Translations under genes and position numbers: made by a program | Shown here: positions 4,708 through 32,566 of the stretch, one piece after another | How positions within the stretch are numbered: position 1 is the stretch's first letter | Layout: each line of letters starts with the position of its first letter | Notes under the pieces: model-generated | Database searches by the model: none | The model's input: only the letters and a program-made list of their open reading frames with translations | What the model was told of the DNA's origin: nothing | NCBI GenBank assembly: GCA_963727585.1 | Contig: CAVSHH010000003.1 | Location: 2,218,772 to 2,282,771, forward strand | Reading direction: 5' to 3' | Origin: an uncultured Chloroflexia bacterium | GTDB lineage: Bacteria; Chloroflexota; Limnocylindria; Limnocylindrales; CSP1-4 | Length of the DNA: 64,000 bases

Positions 4708-4893
4708 TCAGCGCTTGACGATCAGCCACAGCACGAGCAGGGCGAGACCCACGCCCAACACCGGCAGGACGCCCGCGGGCAGGGCGCTCGACACCGCGTC
4801 GACCATGCCCTGGAGCGCGGACCCGATCGCCGCGAGGGCGCCGCTCACGAGGCCCGAGATCCCGTCGCCCACCGAGCGCAGCAATCCGTCCAT
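4708..4893 (-). CDS. hypothetical small membrane protein (61 aa)
   Basis: Internal ATG of the 154-aa ORF. The C-terminal 61 aa form a glycine-zipper-like segment plus a hydrophobic helix (MDGLLRSVGDGISGLVSGALAAIGSALQGMVDAVSSALPAGVLPVLGVGLALLVLWLIVKR). The upstream part of the ORF is low-complexity. No clear Shine-Dalgarno. Confidence 0.3.
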   Translation of the reverse strand: MDGLLRSVGDGISGLVSGALAAIGSALQGMVDAVSSALPAGVLPVLGVGLALLVLWLIVKR

Positions 4894-24793: not shown

Positions 24794-26368
24794 TCAGGCT
24801 GGCCGGACCGCCCAGGTCCCGCCAGATCCCGTCACCCGGAGGACCGCGAGGCGTGCGAGGTTGACCGCGGCGGCGAGGAGGGCGAAGTCGGCGCCAACCT
24901 TCAGCCTGCCGCGGACACGAGCCCGCCGCCCGCCGTGTCGTCGGCGGACGAGATGGGCGAGCTTGCGCTCGACCTTGGGACGCGTTGCCCGGTAGTCGGC
25001 GAGCCAGGCGGGGTCGCGCGTGTCGGCGCGGCCGGCAGTGAGAAGCGCCTCGTGCGGGCCGACAGCGATCGAGCGACCGCGAGCCGAGGTCGTGCACCGG
25101 CTGACCAGCGGGCAGGTGGTACAGGCGCTTCGGAAGCGCGCCTGGGCCTCGCCGCGCTGATGCCGCGTGAGCCTGGCGACCCGACCGGCGGGACAGGTGA
25201 CGGTGCCGGCGCCGAGGTCGATCGTGAAGTCGTCCTTGGTGAAGTGCCCAGGCACGCCGTTCGCAGGCTGGACCTTGACCCGGCTGAGCGCGCCCGCCTC
25301 GTCGAGCGCTTCGAGCACCGGGCCCGTCCCATACGCCGCGTCGCCGTACACGACGGGCGGGGTGGCGGGTGCGGCTTCGCGCGCGAGGTCGTGGGTGAGC
25401 AGGGCGAGGGCAACCGAGGCGTCGCCGGCGTTGCCCGGGGTGACCGCGGTCGCGGTGACGAGCTCATGGTCAGGGTCGATCGCGACGTGGCCCTTGTAGC
25501 CGTCGAACCCCCGGGCCTCGGTCTTGTGGCCGTGGCGGGTGTCGGGATCGACCGTGCTGATCACCCGGTCGGGGGCGACCCGCCGGGCGATCCGCACCCG
25601 GCCGTCCGGACCCGGCTCGAGGTCCTGGCCGAGCACCGTGGCGAGCAGGACCGCGGCCTCGGCAAGCGGAGCCTCGAGCGGCTCGCCCTCGAGCCCGGCG
25701 AGCACGGCCTCGCCGTCGCGGGCGAGGGCGTCGACCAGGGCCGCCCGGGCGGTGGCGTCATCCCAGTCCGCGGCGGGCTTGCCGCCCTGGCGGTAGTCGT
25801 CGTCGCGCCGGAGGACGGTGCGCAGGCCGGGCTCGCGCCCGCCCGATGCCGCGAGCACGCCCTGGATCGCCGAGCGGACCAGGGTGACCGTGTCCATGGT
25901 CGCGACCGCGTCGTACAGGGGCGTGGAGTCGAGCACCCGCCGGACGCCGACCAGGCCAGCACCCCGCGCGACCTCGAGCGTGCGCTCGAAGATCCGGTTG
26001 GGACGCTCCGAGCGGGCGAGCCTCGCCCGCATGTCGACGAGCACCGTGTGGGCGAAGCCCGGGGCATCGAAGGGCTGGCCGCCGGCGGCGTACTTCCAGC
26101 GCGCGTCGAAGGTGTACCGCTCGACGGCCTCGCGGTCGGACAGGCCCTCGAGGCGCTGGAGGACCATCACGACCGCGACGACCAGGGGCGGCACCGAGCG
26201 CCGGCCGACGTTGGCCGCGAACAGGTCGCTGAACAGCTCGTCAGGGAACAGCGTGTGGCACTCTCGGGCGAGCAGGGCATGGATCGAGTCGGATCGGACC
26301 AGCGGCTCGACGAAGCTGGCGGTGTCGCGGAACAGGTCGGCCTGACGGGGTGTGGATCCCTGCGACAT
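24794..26368 (-). CDS. IS1182 family transposase (DDE)
   Basis: InsH-type N-terminal domain (ADLFRDTASFVEPLVRSDSIHALLARE), a DDE domain (VDPDTRHGHKTEARGFDGYKGHVAIDPD) and a Cys-rich C-terminus (CPAGRV ... CTTCPLVSRC), as in IS1182-family transposases. Confidence 0.85.
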   Translation of the reverse strand: MSQGSTPRQADLFRDTASFVEPLVRSDSIHALLARECHTLFPDELFSDLFAANVGRRSVPPLVVAVVMVLQRLEGLSDREAVERYTFDARWKYAAGGQPFDAPGFAHTVLVDMRARLARSERPNRIFERTLEVARGAGLVGVRRVLDSTPLYDAVATMDTVTLVRSAIQGVLAASGGREPGLRTVLRRDDDYRQGGKPAADWDDATARAALVDALARDGEAVLAGLEGEPLEAPLAEAAVLLATVLGQDLEPGPDGRVRIARRVAPDRVISTVDPDTRHGHKTEARGFDGYKGHVAIDPDHELVTATAVTPGNAGDASVALALLTHDLAREAAPATPPVVYGDAAYGTGPVLEALDEAGALSRVKVQPANGVPGHFTKDDFTIDLGAGTVTCPAGRVARLTRHQRGEAQARFRSACTTCPLVSRCTTSARGRSIAVGPHEALLTAGRADTRDPAWLADYRATRPKVERKLAHLVRRRHGGRRARVRGRLKVGADFALLAAAVNLARLAVLRVTGSGGTWAVRPA

Positions 26369-26436: not shown

Positions 26437-26476
26437 GTCAGCCCGTCAGAACGCGCGTTTCACACCAGCCACCTAG
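26437..26476. repeat. IS terminal inverted repeat (right)
   Basis: gtcagcccgtcagaacgcgcgtttcacaccagccacctag. Confidence 0.8.
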
Positions 26477-27180
26477 GGGCCGACCTCCGCGAGCGCGGCG
26501 GCGAGCTGGACCGTCGTGGCCTGGTCGAGCCCGGTGGTGGCGAGGTACCACATCGGGCGCTCGCCGGGTGCGGCGACCACCGCGAACCCGGTCCCGGTCT
26601 GCAGGAGCGTCCCGTCGAGCGGTCCCAGCGCGGCGGGGCCGAGGTCGGTGCCACCCGTGTCGCAGCCGCCGTTGACGGCGCACGAGCTGCCCTCGTCGAG
26701 CCGCAGCGTCGCCCCACCCGGCCCCGCGTACTCGACGTAGACCCAGCCGCCGTTCCCGGTCCGGTACCGCCCGCTCTGGAGGTACCAGCCCTTGCGCATG
26801 ACGCCGCACAGGACCGGCCAATCGACGGCGTTCGCGATGGCGTCGAAGAAGGCGCGGTTCTCGTCGGTCCCGGTGCACGCCTCGGCGCGCCCGGTCGGCG
26901 TCGAGGCGGACGGATCGTCGGTCGGGGTCTCGGTCGGGGATGCCGCCGGCGACTCGGTGAACGTCGCGCTCGGCGATGCCGCCGGAGAATCGGTGGGCGT
27001 CCCGCTCGGCGGCTCCGTGGCCGGCACCACCCCGGTAGCGGGCGCGGCGGACAGGCTGGGCCAGGTGGTGGGCGCCGCCGTGGGAGCGGCCGATCCATCC
27101 GAGGCCGGCGGCGAACCTCCGCACGTCGCGGCAAGCATGGCGACGACCGCCACGAGGACGAGAGCGCGGAACCTGGGCAC
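26473..27180 (-). CDS. putative lipoprotein (Pro/Thr/Ser-rich linker plus C-terminal Cys-containing domain)
   Basis: Signal peptide with a lipobox (MPRFRALVLVAVVAMLAATCGG). Its TAG stop lies inside the terminal CTAG of the IS right inverted repeat. Confidence 0.6.
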   Translation of the reverse strand: MPRFRALVLVAVVAMLAATCGGSPPASDGSAAPTAAPTTWPSLSAAPATGVVPATEPPSGTPTDSPAASPSATFTESPAASPTETPTDDPSASTPTGRAEACTGTDENRAFFDAIANAVDWPVLCGVMRKGWYLQSGRYRTGNGGWVYVEYAGPGGATLRLDEGSSCAVNGGCDTGGTDLGPAALGPLDGTLLQTGTGFAVVAAPGERPMWYLATTGLDQATTVQLAAALAEVGP

Positions 27181-27234: not shown

Positions 27235-28002
27235 TCAGTCGCCGTTCACGCCGGCGGCCAGCCGGACCAGGGCGGGCTCGACGCCGAACGTCTCGCGGAT
27301 GCGGGCATCCGTGAGCACCGCGGCGGGCGGGCCGTCGGCCACCACCCGGCCGTGGTCCATGATCACGAGCCGCGGGAAGAAGTGGGCAGCCAGGCCGAGG
27401 TCGTGGAGCACCGCCACCAGCGCCGTGCCGTCGCGCTCGTTGAGATCGCGCAGCAGCTCCATGGCCTCGACCTGGTGGCGCAGGTCGAGGTGGACGGTCG
27501 GCTCGTCGAGCAGCAGCACGGGCGACTCCTGCGCGACCGCGAGCGCGAGCAGCACCAGCTGTCGCTCCCCGAGGGACAGCTCGCGGGCGTCGCGACCGAG
27601 CAGGTGGCCGACGCCCACCCGGTCGATCGCGGCCGCGACGGCGGCCCGGTCCGCGGGACCGGCGCCACGCAGCGCGGACTCGTGGGGCAGCCGCCCGAGG
27701 GCGACGACCTCCTCGACCCGCATCGAGAACGGGAGCGCGGTCTGCTGCGGCACCACCGCCAGCCTGCGGGCGACCTCGGCACGGTCGAGCCCGACGATCG
27801 GTCGCTCGTCCAGCAGGACCCGCCCGGTGCTGGGCCGGAGGATGCCCGTCAGCGCCCGCAGGAGTGTGGACTTGCCGGCCCCGTTGGGCCCGATCAGCGC
27901 CACCCGCTCGCCGTGCTCGAGCCGGAACGAGACGTCGCGCAGGATCGCGCGCTCGCGCACCTCGACGGTCACGCCGTCGGCGAGAAGCGCCGGACCGGTC
28001 AC
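27235..28002 (-). CDS. ABC transporter ATP-binding protein (FecE/BtuD-type, iron-chelate/cobalamin uptake)
   Basis: Walker A (GPNGAGKST), ABC signature (LSLGERQ) and Walker B (LLLDEP) are present. GTG start overlaps the permease stop (GTGA). Confidence 0.9.
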   Translation of the reverse strand: MTGPALLADGVTVEVRERAILRDVSFRLEHGERVALIGPNGAGKSTLLRALTGILRPSTGRVLLDERPIVGLDRAEVARRLAVVPQQTALPFSMRVEEVVALGRLPHESALRGAGPADRAAVAAAIDRVGVGHLLGRDARELSLGERQLVLLALAVAQESPVLLLDEPTVHLDLRHQVEAMELLRDLNERDGTALVAVLHDLGLAAHFFPRLVIMDHGRVVADGPPAAVLTDARIRETFGVEPALVRLAAGVNGD

Positions 28003-29072
28003 AGCTCGTACCCCGTGCGCGCCCGCCGGAGCAGGGCGAGGAAGAACGGAGCCCCGATGATCGCGGTCACCACCCCCACCGGGATATCGCCGGCAAGGCG
28101 CGCGGCGAGGTCCGCGAAGATGAGCAGGTTGGCGCCCCAGATCGCGGAGATCGGGAGCACGAACCGGGCGTTGGGACCGACCAGCAGCCGCACCACGTGG
28201 GGCACGACCAGGCCCACGAACCCGATCAGGCCGCTGATCGTCACCGCGGCCGCCGTGACCAGCGAGGCCAGCGCGAGCAGGAGCGCCCGCTCCCGGGCCA
28301 CGTTGATGCCCAGGTGGCTGGCCGTCTCCTCGCCCAGGAGCAGGGCGTTGAGCGACCGGGCCCGGAACACGATGAGCAGCGTGCCGATGAGGATGATCGG
28401 CAGGGCGCCCGCCAGCCGCTCCCAGGAGGCCAGCTGGAAGCTGCCAAGCAGGTAGCCGAAGATCTGGCGCAGCGCGGCCCCGGACAGGTACATCGCCATC
28501 GCCAGCCCGGCCGACAGCAGCGAGGCGACCGCGTAGCCCGTCAGCAGCAGGCTGGTGAGCGGCGCGAGCCCGCTGACCCGCGACAGCTTCCAGACGGTGG
28601 TCACGGCGGCCAGCGCGCCGACGAACGCGAGCGCGTGGACCAGTCCGAACCCGAACACCAGGCTGCGGATCGGGAGCAGGAAGGCGATCGCCGCGCCGAG
28701 CGCGGCGCCTGAGGCGGTCCCCAGCACGTACGGGTCGGCCAGCGGGTTGCGCAGCAGACCCTGGAAGGTGGCCCCGGCCACGGCCAGCCCGGTGCCCACG
28801 ATCAGGGCCGTGAGCACCCGTGGCACCCGCAGGTCCCACACGATGGCCGCGATGGCGGGGTCGGCGACGGACAGGTGGGTGCCGAGGACCCGGTCGATCA
28901 CGATCGCGATCACCTCGCCGGGCGGGACCCGGACGCTGCCGAGCGCGATGCCGAGCAGCATCCCGAGGATGGCGACGGCGATCCCGCCGAGCACCAGCCA
29001 CAGGCGCCGGTCCCGTGCCCGGGGCACGGCTCCCAGCCTGGATCCGGCGTCGCCGAGCGTCGTCGCCCGCAT
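27999..29072 (-). CDS. FecCD-family ABC permease (BtuC/FepD-like)
   Basis: About 9 TM segments and the FecCD signature (GLIGFVGLVVPHVVRLLVG). ATG at 29072, 2 nt after the SBP stop. Confidence 0.9.
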   Translation of the reverse strand: MRATTLGDAGSRLGAVPRARDRRLWLVLGGIAVAILGMLLGIALGSVRVPPGEVIAIVIDRVLGTHLSVADPAIAAIVWDLRVPRVLTALIVGTGLAVAGATFQGLLRNPLADPYVLGTASGAALGAAIAFLLPIRSLVFGFGLVHALAFVGALAAVTTVWKLSRVSGLAPLTSLLLTGYAVASLLSAGLAMAMYLSGAALRQIFGYLLGSFQLASWERLAGALPIILIGTLLIVFRARSLNALLLGEETASHLGINVARERALLLALASLVTAAAVTISGLIGFVGLVVPHVVRLLVGPNARFVLPISAIWGANLLIFADLAARLAGDIPVGVVTAIIGAPFFLALLRRARTGYEL

Positions 29073-29074
29073 GG

Positions 29075-30133
29075 TCACGGCACGGGCGGAATGGGCGACG
29101 AGGCGGGAATCGCCGCCTCGGGGTGGATGGTCGAGGCAAGGAGCTGGAGACCCAGGAACAGGCGCGGCCCGGGCCTGGTGATGAGGGTGTCCTCGATCGG
29201 CCGGATGTCGCCGTTCCTGACCGCGGTCATGGTGTCGAAGCCGGGTCGGGCAGCCACGTCCCCGGCCGTCACGCCATAGGCCGCATCGGCGAGGAGGATG
29301 ACCTCCGGGTCCGCGGCGACCAGGCGCTCGGCCGGGATGTCGTACGCGGTCGGGGAGCCGGTGGTGACGGGTTCGGCGCCGGCGAGACTGATCATCTCGG
29401 CCAGGAACGAGTCGTCGGCGGGACCGTAGTAGGCACCGGTGGCGTCGATCTCGTAGTACACGCGCGGCCGCGGCTGGCCATCCACCGCCGCTGCCACGGC
29501 CGCGAACTCGTCGCGCATCCGCTGGGCCATGGCGCTGCCCTCGTCCGGCCTGCCCACCGCCCGCCCGAGCAGCTCGATGTCGGTGAACACGCCCTCGACC
29601 GACGGCGCGTAGACCACGACCACCGGCACGCCCAGCTCCCGCAGCTTCTGGACCGCGTCGGGCGGGGTGCCGAAGTTGCCGCCCGCGATCACGAGGTCGG
29701 CCTTGGCGGCCACGATCTGCTCGATGTCGACCACGATCGCGCTGCCGTCGAACTTCTCGAGGTCCGGCACGTCGGCCGCCTCGGGCGGGTACAGGAAGAT
29801 GTCCTCGGACTTGCCGACCAGGCGCTCGCCGACACCGAGCGCGAACAGCGTCTCGGTGGCCGCGGGGGTGAGGGTGACGATCCGCTGCGGCTCGGCCGGG
29901 ATGGTAACGGCCGTGCCCTCGTCGTCGGTCAGCTCGAAGGGGAACAGCGCGGCCGGGGTGGGGGCCTCCGTCGGAGACGGGGTCGGGGATTCGCTGGCGA
30001 CCGCAATGGACGGGGGCACCGTGACGGGCTCGGGGCTGGACGTGGCCGCCGGGGCGCCCGAGCAGGCGGCCACGACGACGGCAAGGCCGATGCCGGCCAG
30101 GGACAGGATCGATCGGGAAGGACGTGCGTCCAC
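29075..30133 (-). CDS. ABC transporter periplasmic substrate-binding lipoprotein (BtuF/FecB class)
   Basis: Signal peptide with lipobox (LAVVVAACSG) and a class III SBP fold (RIVTLTPAATETLFALG ... DLVIAGG). GTG start at 30133. Confidence 0.85.
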   Translation of the reverse strand: MDARPSRSILSLAGIGLAVVVAACSGAPAATSSPEPVTVPPSIAVASESPTPSPTEAPTPAALFPFELTDDEGTAVTIPAEPQRIVTLTPAATETLFALGVGERLVGKSEDIFLYPPEAADVPDLEKFDGSAIVVDIEQIVAAKADLVIAGGNFGTPPDAVQKLRELGVPVVVVYAPSVEGVFTDIELLGRAVGRPDEGSAMAQRMRDEFAAVAAAVDGQPRPRVYYEIDATGAYYGPADDSFLAEMISLAGAEPVTTGSPTAYDIPAERLVAADPEVILLADAAYGVTAGDVAARPGFDTMTAVRNGDIRPIEDTLITRPGPRLFLGLQLLASTIHPEAAIPASSPIPPVP

Positions 30134-30270
30134 TCGGAACTCCAGGGTGTGTCTGGGTGAAACGAGACCCCTCGCTCGGGAGGAGCGGGGGGTCAGGCAG
30201 TGGATCGCACGCTGCGCCTGACCTTTCTCTCGAAGGCTCGAGCGGCGACGGCTGGTCGGCGACCGGACTT

Positions 30271-30293
30271 CCGCCCCCCGGGGGGGCGGTCAC
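30271..30293 (-). promoter_or_regulatory. very strong GC hairpin (CCGCCCCCCCC/GGGGGGGCGG) between the candidate riboswitch and the SBP start; possible expression-platform terminator or sequester helix
   Basis: Read directly: ccgccccccgggggggcgg. Confidence 0.4.
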
Positions 30294-30324
30294 CGTAGCG
30301 GGACTGTGCCGGACTCTCACCGGC

Positions 30325-30475
30325 TTCGCGACCGCGGCGTCGGATCTGCAGGGACCTGCGGTCCCGGCTGACGGGCGGAGCGTATCACTCCGGCCCACGT
30401 AAGCAGCAGGTAATTGGTCACCGCCACAGTGGCCACCTCGCCCTCCTCCCGCCGGACACCTGTTCCCACCCGCCG
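30325..30475 (-). ncRNA. candidate cobalamin (B12) riboswitch
   Basis: Minus-strand 5' leader of the BtuF-like operon contains, in order, GGGAAcaGGUG, GGCGGGAGGAGGGCG, GGUGGCCACUGUGG (the B12-box GCCACUG) and GUCAGCCGGGACCGCAGG, which resembles the AGYCAGGAGACCKGCC 3' element. A C8/G8 hairpin follows at about 30271-30293. Coordinates are approximate. Confidence 0.45.
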
Positions 30476-30491
30476 GAGGAGGAATCGGTCA

Positions 30492-31556
30492 ATGGAGCTC
30501 GCCAGCTGGATGGTGTCCGCGCCGCTCGTTCTCGCCATCTCGACATGGAGCCTCGGCCCGGCGGCGGGTGACCGCCCATGGGATCCGCCGTGGGATCCCC
30601 CGCCCTGCTCCGCAGCGACGACGGCCCCGGCCGGCGTCGGGTGGTACCGGCTGGACCCGGTGCTCGACGGGACCGGCACGCTTGCCGCCCGCCGGCTCGT
30701 GGTCGGCGTGGACGGGGCATCCCAAGGGTCGATGGACCTCGCCCCCGAGTCGTTCGCCTCGGGCCCGGTGAGCGGGCTCGTCCTGAGCGGCGAGGACGAT
30801 GGCTCGGTCTCGCGCCTGCGCCTGGTGGACGCCGCCCGCGGCTGTGCCGTGGCGATCGGCGAGGCGCCGGACGTGATCCGCAGTGCCGTCCTCGCCCCTG
30901 GCGCGGGCTACCTGTACGAGCACCGCGTGGATCGCGCCACCCGGGTGGACCTCGGAATCTGGCGACGCGAGATCGGGGGCGACGTCCGGCGGGTGCTCGC
31001 CGGGCTCGCGCCGGACCCGGTGCTCGGCCCGACCTTCGTGACCGACCTCGTCCTCGAGCCCGACGGGCGTCTCCTGGTCTCGTCGTGCGCCCAGCCAGCC
31101 TGTCGGGTGCGGCTCCTGGACCCGGAGGACGGCACGGTGACGATGGTGAAGCCGTCGGGACCTGCGCTCGGGGTGACCGGCGGAAGCCTGGTCGCCCGCG
31201 CCGCCTGCTTCGGCGACCCGTGCCCCGTTGACGCCATCGATCTTGCGTCCGGGCAGCGGCGCCGGCTCGCCACGGAGGCATATGCCGCGGCGCTCGGCGG
31301 CCCGGGCCGGGGCACGCTCCTGATCGAGACCGCCGGCCACCGGGTCGCAGCGATCGACGTCCGTTCCGGCCGGCGCACGGCCGAGGCTGCTTCCGCCGGC
31401 GTTCCGCTGCGCGCGGGATCGACCGCACCGGCCGGCGCAGAGGGCGCAGCCGGCACCGTGGTTCTCGCGCCGGGCGGGCGACCGGCAGCGCACACCCTGG
31501 TCCCGCTCGAGCCCGTCTCGCTCCGCCCGCCGGCCCGCCCGGAGGTCACCCGATGA
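30492..31556 (+). CDS. hypothetical secreted protein
   Basis: ATG preceded by GGAGGAGG. N-terminal signal peptide (MELASWMVSAPLVLAISTWSLGPAAG). No recognisable domain. Competing antisense ORFs lack signals. Confidence 0.5.
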   Translation: MELASWMVSAPLVLAISTWSLGPAAGDRPWDPPWDPPPCSAATTAPAGVGWYRLDPVLDGTGTLAARRLVVGVDGASQGSMDLAPESFASGPVSGLVLSGEDDGSVSRLRLVDAARGCAVAIGEAPDVIRSAVLAPGAGYLYEHRVDRATRVDLGIWRREIGGDVRRVLAGLAPDPVLGPTFVTDLVLEPDGRLLVSSCAQPACRVRLLDPEDGTVTMVKPSGPALGVTGGSLVARAACFGDPCPVDAIDLASGQRRRLATEAYAAALGGPGRGTLLIETAGHRVAAIDVRSGRRTAEAASAGVPLRAGSTAPAGAEGAAGTVVLAPGGRPAAHTLVPLEPVSLRPPARPEVTR

Positions 31557-32566
31557 TCCGCCTCGCCATCTGTGCTGCGCTTCTGCTCGCCGCCCTGGCC
31601 GCGGGACCGGTCTCGGCCGCCCCCACGCCGGACCCGTTCATGGGCCACCCGTTCAACCAGAACCAGGTGCTGACCTGGCGCTGGGGCGTCGGTGGCGCGC
31701 CACCGACGTCCATCAGGAACGCCATCAAGGCGGCCGTCGACGATGCCAACTCGACCCGTCAGAGCAGGGCCCCCACGTTCGCCAAGGCGAGCGGGGCGAG
31801 CAACACGATCTCGTACGGCGTCGAGGCGCCGTGCGGCACCAACGGCCTCGCCTGCTTCCGGCGGGACGCGCCCGACTGGTTCTCGGTCCACCTGCGCGAG
31901 AACGGGCACCGCTACGACTGGGGGACGCTCCGCTGGTGCGAGGCGACCGGCCGCCCCAAGGGCTGCTACGACGCGGAGAACATCACCCTCGACGAGCTGG
32001 GCCACGTGTTCGGCCTGGACCACCACGTGAACAAGCCCGACGACTCCGACTACGGCGACGCGGTCGTCCAGACCTACTCGCGGGTCAAGCCGCAGCCCTA
32101 CTACAACGCGCACGCGCTGGCACGCTGCGACGTGGCGACCCTTCAGCAGGTCTACGACGTCGCGAATACCACCATGCGCTACAGCACCTGCCTCGATGTC
32201 CCAACCGAGCTGGAGCTGGCCGCCTCCTCCGGATCGGCCTACTACGGCTCCACCGTCACCTTCACTGCCACCCTGATGTCGGACGGGACCGGGAAGCTGT
32301 CCAACAACAGGATCTCGGGGCGGACCGTGGTCCTCCAGCGGCGGTCGTCGTCGGGCTGGACCGATATCGCCACCATGGCGCCCGGTTCCACCAACGGCAC
32401 CTACCTGGCGGGGATCGAGATGCTGTCCAGCGCCGACTGGCGGGCCCGGTTCCGGGCCCCGTCCAACGAGGGACTGCGCGCCTCGTCGTCTGGCGCCATC
32501 GGGATCGCCGTATCCCTCAACTGCGTCAGCGCGCGCTGCCAGCTGACCCAGCCGGGAGCGGAATGA
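31553..32566 (+). CDS. secreted protein with a metzincin-like variant motif (DExxHxxGxxH)
   Basis: ATGA overlap with the upstream gene. Signal peptide (MIRLAICAALLLAALAAGPVSA). Contains ITLDELGHVFGLDHH, which resembles the snapalysin/metzincin HExxHxxGxxH motif with the first His replaced by Asp. Confidence 0.55.
   Translation: MIRLAICAALLLAALAAGPVSAAPTPDPFMGHPFNQNQVLTWRWGVGGAPPTSIRNAIKAAVDDANSTRQSRAPTFAKASGASNTISYGVEAPCGTNGLACFRRDAPDWFSVHLRENGHRYDWGTLRWCEATGRPKGCYDAENITLDELGHVFGLDHHVNKPDDSDYGDAVVQTYSRVKPQPYYNAHALARCDVATLQQVYDVANTTMRYSTCLDVPTELELAASSGSAYYGSTVTFTATLMSDGTGKLSNNRISGRTVVLQRRSSSGWTDIATMAPGSTNGTYLAGIEMLSSADWRARFRAPSNEGLRASSSGAIGIAVSLNCVSARCQLTQPGAE

Follow-up and report, generated by a model that had tools for sequence, protein, structure and literature searches.

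A cobalamin riboswitch with a candidate five-codon upstream open reading frame and an abutting hairpin in the leader of a BtuFCD-like importer operon of the Limnocylindria

A 64,000-nucleotide stretch of DNA from an uncultured member of the Limnocylindria (referred to as the window, over its full length) carries a cobalamin (vitamin B12) riboswitch in the minus-strand leader of an operon for a BtuFCD-like importer. The layout of this leader makes it fairly probable, in our judgment, that the riboswitch acts through a five-codon upstream open reading frame (uORF) gated by its P13 hairpin and through a second hairpin abutting that frame, in such a way that the operon would be off in the presence of B12. 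The supports computed here are the family match, the covariation of the helices, the gene context, the conservation of the uORF in its length and in its start and stop, and the terminators found in related leaders. The riboswitch itself is an ordinary additional member of a known family. A cobalamin riboswitch in the minus-strand leader within 30134–30491 had been proposed in a sequence-only reading of the window, and this is borne out by a full-length match to RF01482 and by orthologous leaders that pass the gathering threshold; that reading, right about family and operon and wrong about the anatomy of the element, is partly confirmed in what it observed and partly supported in its interpretation.

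The element matches the adenosylcobalamin (AdoCbl) model RF01482 with E=8.4e-8 in a search of 651 nt. A search of all 64 kb of the window gives E=8.3e-6, with no other match at E≤0.01 to any of 4227 Rfam families. A second or tandem aptamer was considered and rejected, since the clan has a single match, in the region as in the window at large. Relatives of the substrate-binding protein (SBP) encoded by the first gene of the operon were taken from one-genome-per-species contigs and number 25, all of them in Chloroflexota metagenome-assembled genomes mostly labelled Candidatus Limnocylindria or Limnocylindrales, and the leader is kept in 24. Scanning of metagenomes for the P13 15-mer contributed 17 further leaders having the aptamer core, 16 of them in-group, and the resulting covariation alignment holds 41 leaders, its counts uncorrected for shared ancestry. 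At the same position 32 of 39 orthologous leaders reach the gathering threshold, 25 as RF01482 and 7 as RF00174, and the nearest relative, L134, lies above it with 59.1 bits.

In the alignment the helices taken from Rfam have pairs in 89.6% of their cells, as against 31–47% with slid partners; cells with double changes number 70 against 25±4 in shuffles (0/500), and the covariation score is 0.159 against 0.082 (0/500 shuffles). The compensatory changes are located in P1 (6/11 pairs) and in the P6 extension (6/7), and the base pairs of P4, P5, and P6 are invariant, hence uninformative on covariation. The covariation check on homologous leaders that had been recommended with the sequence-only reading is positive, with paired aptamer helices and with P1 and the P6 extension covarying. 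Since the orthologues reach the gathering threshold and the helices covary, the window copy is taken as a genuine member of the family lying just under the curated threshold. Its architecture is a compact four-way junction with a short P6 extension and with P13 after P1. The core strands AAGUCCGGUC (30270–30261) and CGCUACGGUGA (30300–30290), the latter a variant of CGCCACUGUGA, were placed by cmscan and are invariant in the 41 leaders. Cobalamin riboswitches regulate by means of a ligand-dependent pseudoknot that joins the C-rich L5 loop to a loop of the platform and as a rule makes a ribosome-binding site inaccessible (PMC2258182; PMC11260477), and the three cytidines of L5 have this kissing-loop role in the cobalamin family (PMC11260477; PMC2258182). 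Binding of cobalamin and repression by it would be expected of such an element.

The context of an SBP, a FecCD permease, and an ATPase had been read correctly from the sequence alone; by Pfam, the operon combines genes for a cluster-A SBP, a FecCD permease, and an ABC ATPase, and the nearest solved structures of the SBP in a PDB sequence search are BtuF proteins. The top NCBIfam match of the permease is BtuC (PRK09535, 267 bits, below the cut-off of 461) and that of the ATPase is the corrinoid ABC transporter ATPase (PRK09536, 257 bits, below the cut-off of 537), while BtuF ranks second for the SBP (77.6 bits, below the cut-off of 234). None of the three proteins has an equivalog-level match to the BtuF, BtuC, or BtuD models in NCBIfam, and because all of the B12 and corrinoid model scores stay below their cut-offs the operon is to be named BtuFCD-like; a corrinoid specificity of the importer would be read off the riboswitch.

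The candidate uORF begins just after P13, and its Shine-Dalgarno (SD) sequence AGG (30219–30217) is embedded in the outer 3′ strand of that hairpin, 6 nt before the GUG. The outer stem of P13 reads UGCU..AGGCA in 27 leaders and CGCU..AGGCG in the clade of the window, which amounts to one compensatory change from U-A to C-G. An ATG or GTG is found in every leader 9–12 nt past the P13 motif, and in 34 of the 41 in-group leaders the frame has exactly five codons, with a stop after four further sense codons (starts: GTG 18, ATG 16). Around the uORF stop position, the in-group leaders are free of stop triplets at ±1 and ±2. The purines of the stop triplet co-vary within the set of stops (24 TGA, 9 TAG, 1 TAA, and 1 TGG; Fisher p=1.4e-6, phylogeny-uncorrected). 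The internal length of the uORF is fixed and the spacers around it vary, from 9 to 12 nt before and from 0 to 9 nt after.

In L007, the sole leader with TGG, the frame continues into the SBP, and in L006 and L008, also devoid of the uORF stop, uORF and SBP again form one fused frame. In the stop-less leaders L006, L008, and L025 the hairpin is immediately followed by the predicted SBP start, for which its 3′ arm provides the SD; in the uORF-bearing leaders with an identifiable SBP start, this start lies 103–169 nt past the beginning of the P13 motif and has an SD of its own, and in the window 59 nt separate the end of the uORF stop (30193) from the SBP GUG (30133). In L019 (leader at 2867–2976) and L092 (leader on the minus strand, near 4848–4862), which have neither the uORF stop nor the hairpin, the same P13-embedded SD and start codon initiate a real gene, namely the SBP lipoprotein in L019 and an open reading frame with a signal-peptide-like N-terminus in L092, which shows the site within P13 to serve as a true initiation region. 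L006, L007, and L008 have the form of intermediates, in which the stop is lost and the uORF is fused in frame to the SBP; together with L019 and L092 they suggest a route by which the module was gained or lost.

A GC-rich hairpin follows the uORF stop at a distance of 0–9 nt in the leaders, and in the window it starts within the stop codon itself. It is present in 40 leaders, where the duplex of its own arms has −20.2 kcal/mol against −13.4 kcal/mol for swapped arms; RNAalifold on the MAFFT alignment missed it, as the loops misalign, and per-sequence folding was used instead. The tails behind the hairpin are two-fold enriched in U in the 72%-GC clade (0.31 vs. 0.16, p=4e-4). The window hairpin was considered as a canonical intrinsic terminator and was not found to be one by prediction; it is retained as no more than a degenerate or ancestral terminator, since the tails are U-enriched and relatives possess canonical ones. 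These relatives are distant leaders recovered from the metagenome hits by a looser filter, with a GC content of 57–66% and RF00174 matches of 48–69 bits, and the permeases of L063, L074, and L139 are 41–49% identical to that of the window. They have the same layout, consisting of P13, a strong SD, the uORF, and then a hairpin with a clear U-tract, and canonical terminators starting 1–5 nt past the uORF stop are predicted in L063, L074, and L045. Four of the distant RF00174 leaders have five-codon uORFs made of unrelated codons (MPRAT, MSEVR, MNVLF, MVARP) and one has six codons. The recurrence of the same layout with unrelated codons and with terminators indicates that what is conserved is the act and the length of translation beside a terminator, and not the peptide or the RNA sequence. 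Viewed as an attenuator, the leader has a conserved five-codon frame whose stop overlaps the foot of the hairpin, with a tail that in the window is U-enriched only and with terminators in the relatives.

In the proposed mechanism, bound cobalamin would cause the aptamer to lock P13, in the cobalamin family by way of the kissing loop of the L5 CCC, and with P13 locked the uORF SD would be hidden and no ribosome would load. With the ribosome absent the GC hairpin at 30194–30166 would fold, as an intrinsic terminator in the lower-GC relatives and with a degenerate U-tail in the window; in the clade of the window the uORF would also engage the SBP start codon in a helix and an anti-SD would form a stem with the SBP SD, and the importer would be off. 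Without B12, a ribosome would translate the five codons and sit on the stop, where it would cover the 5′ arm of the hairpin and melt the helix between uORF and start codon, and both transcription and translation of the SBP would proceed. That Limnocylindria and related lineages (probably Chloroflexota) share this module, with P13 gating a uORF of fixed five codons and the terminating ribosome blocking the abutting hairpin, is a tentative proposal which has nearly as much for it as against it.

The helix of the window clade comprises roughly 14 bp with −18.9 kcal/mol against −8.2 kcal/mol for swapped partners (rank 0/26). It appears in the minimum free energy (MFE) and centroid folds, closes the domain that holds the hairpin and the anti-SD:SD stem, and is also found in L010, L047, L081, L015, L012, and L009. 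Masking of the uORF plus 12 nt raises the probability of the SBP SD being unpaired from 0.33 to 0.46 in the window and from a mean of 0.14 to 0.25 in the family, where 16 of 31 leaders go up and 2 go down. A relay of four elements, in which the second arm of the hairpin would pair with a downstream CCCCUC copy and free the SD, was also tried and set aside, with partial thermodynamic support only (16/31 improve).

Several points weigh against the mechanism proposed here. The aptamer of the window narrowly misses the Rfam gathering threshold, by 1.6 bits (48.4 vs. 50), this threshold being the one which the sequence-only reading had itself named as its check, and a scan of the whole window at gathering thresholds returned zero matches; shared ancestry is left in the counts of the alignment. 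Both L5 and the P13 motif CCUUCGAGAGAAAGG are invariant, giving no covariation signal for a kissing loop between them. The uORF has a weak SD (AGG) and begins with GUG, the peptide and the codons are unconserved between lineages (VRSTA, MRPTG, MSEVR, MNVLF, and others), and the variability across codon positions, measured as entropy, is ambiguous and not clearly coding-like; such variability fits a uORF for which the act of translation alone matters, yet it removes one line of evidence. The window hairpin has no canonical U-tract and is no canonical intrinsic terminator by prediction. The helix between uORF and start codon was rejected as a family-wide feature (p=0.16) and is retained as a feature of the clade, and the gain in SD accessibility from masking of the uORF is only modest. 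In the lower-GC relatives a ribosome-free antiterminator could suffice. Finally, ligand binding, translation of the uORF in the window, and the effect of the ribosome on the hairpin are steps which we infer from sequence.

The strongest competing explanation, though an unlikely one, is an ordinary translational switch in which the apparent uORF is untranslated and serves as a strand against the translation initiation region, pairing with the SBP start when B12 is bound, so that the start and stop triplets would be incidental. Strong pairing of the segment with the SBP start region is indeed seen in the window clade, and several further leaders show it too, the unconserved peptide and the weak SD would be natural, and most B12 riboswitches are described as translational (PMC11260477). 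However, pairing with the start region is not general in the family whereas the five-codon frame is; the stop alternates between TGA, TAG, and TAA and turns into TGG only where the read-through is in frame, the length of the frame is fixed while the flanking spacers vary, and the layout recurs in distant leaders with unrelated sequences.

It is improbable, on the present evidence, that the switch is a purely RNA-based transcriptional one, in which the hairpin at 30194–30166 terminates and, without B12, the 3′ strand of P13 acts as a ribosome-free antiterminator. Such a scheme has its best footing in the lower-GC relatives, where the P13 3′ strand AAAGGGGG of L063, L074, L127, and L139 is complementary to the 5′ arm of the terminator, this pairing having −11 to −17.5 kcal/mol against −7 to −10 kcal/mol for swapped partners, and where L063, L074, and L045 possess their canonical terminators. 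In the window clade, on the contrary, the complementarity is at background (−7.5 vs. −8.0 swapped and −8.6 shuffled), the window lacks a canonical U-tract, and the conserved frame of the uORF is left unexplained. RNA-only and ribosome-based mechanisms may coexist in the lower-GC relatives.

We give little credence to the possibility that translation of the uORF mainly blocks Rho, which would otherwise load on the C-rich stretch after the hairpin and leave the hairpin a secondary role. For another bacterium of high GC content, riboswitch-controlled uORFs coupled to termination by Rho are on record (PMC12810186; PMC11260477), and the segment 30165–30146 is indeed C-rich and G-poor. A uORF of five codons that ends 59 nt before the SBP start would nevertheless shield little RNA, and the conserved juxtaposition of stop and hairpin, along with the canonical terminators of relatives, points to the hairpin. 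A contribution of Rho is compatible with the uORF-and-hairpin mechanism and not exclusive of it.

Practically excluded is the layout given in the sequence-only reading, with the aptamer core at 30467–30355 and a C/G hairpin at 30289–30271 as the expression platform, for which the resemblance of motifs speaks and against which there stand the absence of any cobalamin model match on that segment even at E≤10, the lack of conservation of GCCACUGUGG and GGGAACAGGUG in homologous leaders, the position of the motifs, and the alignment and covariation of the C/G hairpin as P6 in the real aptamer (30355–30212, minus strand). The three quoted motifs are each present once in the window on the minus strand, as claimed; their likeness to riboswitch elements is a matter of chance only. 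The first two, given as ‘GGGAA...GGUG’ and as the ‘B12-box core,’ both lie upstream of the conserved −10 element and thus probably outside this transcript, and read on the plus strand they map to the variable loop and the immediate flank of the anti-SD:SD hairpin in the 5′ untranslated region (UTR) of the divergent gene. The third, taken for the 3′ B12 box, is actually part of the 5′-terminal hairpin of the leader, the real box being located at 30270–30254. The ‘C8/G8’ hairpin had been miscounted, since it reads CCG-C7/G6-CGG (CCGCCCCCCCGGGGGGCGG), and its distance from the third motif, on the downstream side, is 66 nt where about 30 nt had been given; within the aptamer it constitutes the P6 extension.

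It is instructive to compare the leader with known systems. With the clan CL00101 (RF01482 AdoCbl and RF00174 Cobalamin; e.g., the Escherichia coli btuB leader) it shares the four-way-junction core, the B12 box, the L5 CCC, a P13 carrying a ribosome-binding site, and a location ahead of an operon for B12 uptake; the expected logic is OFF. The window differs in having GCUACGG for the consensus GCCACUG and the P13 loop CGAGAGA for CGAGGcA of the model, that is, without the GG of the model consensus, and in that the P13 SD serves a five-codon uORF instead of the regulated gene. In Mycobacterium tuberculosis, riboswitch-gated uORFs are required for downstream expression (PMC11260477; PMC12810186). 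The ppe2 switch of that species with its uORF uPPE2 (PMC11260477) shares a P13-like hairpin masking the SD of the uORF and a compact aptamer with a truncated P6 extension. Downstream expression depends on uORF translation in ppe2; the M. tuberculosis uORF is longer, overlaps ppe2 by AUGA, and works by termination-reinitiation, whereas here the frame has five codons, does not overlap the SBP start (59-nt gap), and abuts a hairpin or terminator. Being non-overlapping and abutting a hairpin, it would be coupled to the SBP through RNA structure or termination. The pe20 Mbox of M. tuberculosis with the uORF rv1805A (PMC12810186) likewise has a translational platform that controls a small uORF, with termination as a secondary event; its ligand class differs, rv1805A is a conserved small protein, and its termination is Rho-dependent, while the leader described here has an unconserved peptide and an intrinsic-type hairpin after the stop.

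Ribosome-mediated attenuation, as in trp-type leaders and in Bacillus subtilis bmrB-bmrCD (PMC4191407), shares the short leader frame immediately before a terminator hairpin, and in these systems the position of the ribosome decides the folding of the hairpin (PMC4191407), which is the logic proposed here. The present leader differs in that it has no regulatory codons or stalling signal, in that its input would be riboswitch control of initiation and not the speed of elongation, and in that the window terminator is without a canonical U-tract; with codons and peptide unconserved, it is not a classical amino-acid or antibiotic attenuator. In Salmonella mgtQ/mgtB (PMC8092293), translation of a short frame also remodels stem-loops that sequester a downstream ribosome-binding site; however, mgtQ is intergenic within its operon, needs specific acidic codons, and is ungated by a riboswitch. 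A full-text literature search of incomplete coverage returned no description of a relay of riboswitch, mini-uORF, and intrinsic terminator, which is weak evidence of novelty. The platform of uORF and hairpin is a well-supported pattern at the sequence level and an unusual arrangement for a common riboswitch, from which we infer the mechanism.

The aptamer as such is routine, one further B12 riboswitch before a B12 importer; its host lineage is uncultured and belongs to soil and freshwater, and the Rfam threshold just misses the riboswitch. The live question, raised by the riboswitch-uORF papers on M. tuberculosis of 2024–2026, is how a kissing-loop switch can control a start codon far downstream, or transcription. 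If the mechanism proposed here is true, the five-codon uORF would be a compact natural adapter converting control of initiation into control of termination and of distal translation, uORF-coupled riboswitches would not be restricted to mycobacteria, and the adapter would be directly testable by start-codon, stop-codon, and length mutants and reusable in synthetic biology. The coordinates of the features are collected in Table 1.

Table 1. Features of the leader and of the importer operon, in positions of the window.
Feature	Position	Strand	Remarks
Cobalamin (AdoCbl-type) aptamer and P13	30212–30355	−	RF01482 model positions 1–149, 48.4 bits
P1, 5′ strand CGACGCCGCGGUC	30330–30342	−	cmscan alignment; pairs with 30257–30246
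P1, 3′ strand GACCAGCCGUCG	30246–30257	−	cmscan alignment; covariation
Hairpin GCCGG-UGAGAGU-CCGGC	30308–30324	−	Stem invariant in 41 leaders, variation in the loop only
P5 hairpin AGU-CCC-GCU	30297–30305	−	Invariant in 41 leaders; L5 = CCC, 30302–30300
P6-extension hairpin CCGCCCCCCC/GGGGGGCGG	30271–30289	−	Inside RF01482 model; 6/7 pairs compensatory
B12 box AAGUCCGGUCGCCGACC	30254–30270	−	Aligns to consensus cAAGUCAGGUC...; near-invariant in 41 leaders
P13 hairpin with near-invariant CCUUCGAGAGAAAGG (30236–30222)	30215–30244	−	Part of RF01482 model
Candidate uORF GUG CGA UCC ACU GCC UGA (V-R-S-T-A-stop)	30193–30210	−	Five codons
Proposed platform hairpin GACCCCCCGCUC-CUCCC-GAGCGAGGGGUC	30166–30194	−	First two bases are GA of the uORF stop
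Tail UCGUUUCACC after platform hairpin	30156–30165	−	
uORF strand of long-range helix CGUGCGAUCCACUGC	30197–30211	−	Pairs with 30134–30123
SBP start-codon strand of the helix AGUGGACGCACG	30123–30134	−	Includes GUG 30133–30131
Anti-SD ACCCAG (30158–30153) with SBP SD CUGGAG (30145–30140)	30140–30158	−	Predicted folds
Putative TG-extended −10 element TGATACGCT of the btuF leader	30379–30387	−	TGnTAnnnT conserved
5′-terminal leader hairpin, core GGGACC-GCA-GGUCCC	30344–30372	−	MFE and centroid folds; outside conserved aptamer core
First motif quoted earlier GGGAACAGGTG	30467–30457	−	Once in window
Second motif quoted earlier GGTGGCCACTGTGG	30437–30424	−	Once in window
Third motif quoted earlier GTCAGCCGGGACCGCAGG	30372–30355	−	Once in window
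SBP, Peripla_BP_2 lipoprotein, BtuF-like	29075–30133	−	Pfam E=1e-31; lipobox VAAC
FecCD-family permease, BtuC-like	27999–29027	−	Pfam FecCD E=4e-83; start codon approximate
ABC ATPase, corrinoid-transporter-like	27235–27972	−	Pfam ABC_tran E=5.5e-33; start codon approximate

The minus-strand operon and a plus-strand gene are separated by the 358-nt intergenic region 30134–30491, the first gene of the operon starting with GUG at 30133 (−) and the opposite gene with ATG at 30492 (+), and both orientations are backed by a frame plot of GC content at third codon positions (GC3). At the 5′ end of the leader, GTGnTAnnnT is invariant in 24 of 24 aligned genome leaders and its flanks vary, and in the outgroup L063 the promoter called is TTGCCA-17-TATACT with a TG at the equivalent place; transcription probably starts near G30372, in view of the invariant −10 element and of this likeness to the L063 promoter. 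Promoter and terminator prediction found no canonical −35 element in the window leader. At the 5′ end, directly 5′ of P1, many relatives possess a hairpin as well, differing in sequence; it may be an mRNA-stabilising stem-loop or a P2-like peripheral element. In other leaders an unstructured A/C-rich stretch takes the place of the 5′-terminal hairpin. Between the two divergent start regions, at 30398–30414 (−), lies a direct repeat TTAYC-N6-TTAYC with an 11-nt period; most relatives have it as CTTATC-N5-CTTATC at a varying distance from the btuF −10 element, and it looks like a transcription-factor binding site and not like a −35 element.

On the plus strand, the gene pair 30492–31556 and 31553–32566 retains synteny with the transporter across at least 14 related loci and is possibly linked in function to B12 uptake. 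The first product has 354 aa with a hydrophobic N-terminus and no match in Pfam, NCBIfam, or PDB; the second is a secreted protein with a metzincin-like DELGHVFGLDHH motif, in which Asp stands in place of the first His, and with a weak Astacin match (E=0.0066). The 5′ UTR of the first gene forms a hairpin in which CCUCCUCC-CGCC (30442–30453) pairs with the SD of the gene itself, CCGCCGGAGGAGG (30470–30482), 9 nt before the ATG. This hairpin has no Rfam match and is present in 24 leaders, with invariant arms and a variable loop of 11–15 nt.

Directly after the ATPase gene, at 26473–27180 (−), a 235-aa lipoprotein is encoded which has no match in Pfam, NCBIfam, or a PDB sequence search and of which the C-terminal part of about 120 aa is conserved in an equivalent position across at least 10 loci. 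This gene may belong to the importer operon as an accessory fourth member. Close behind the operon, at 24794–26368 (−), lies a DDE transposase gene (DDE_Tnp_1_6, DDE_Tnp_1, DUF772). On the contig of the distant leader L074, nine tRNA genes are clustered within about 1.5 kb (535–2028), roughly 3 kb upstream of the riboswitch.

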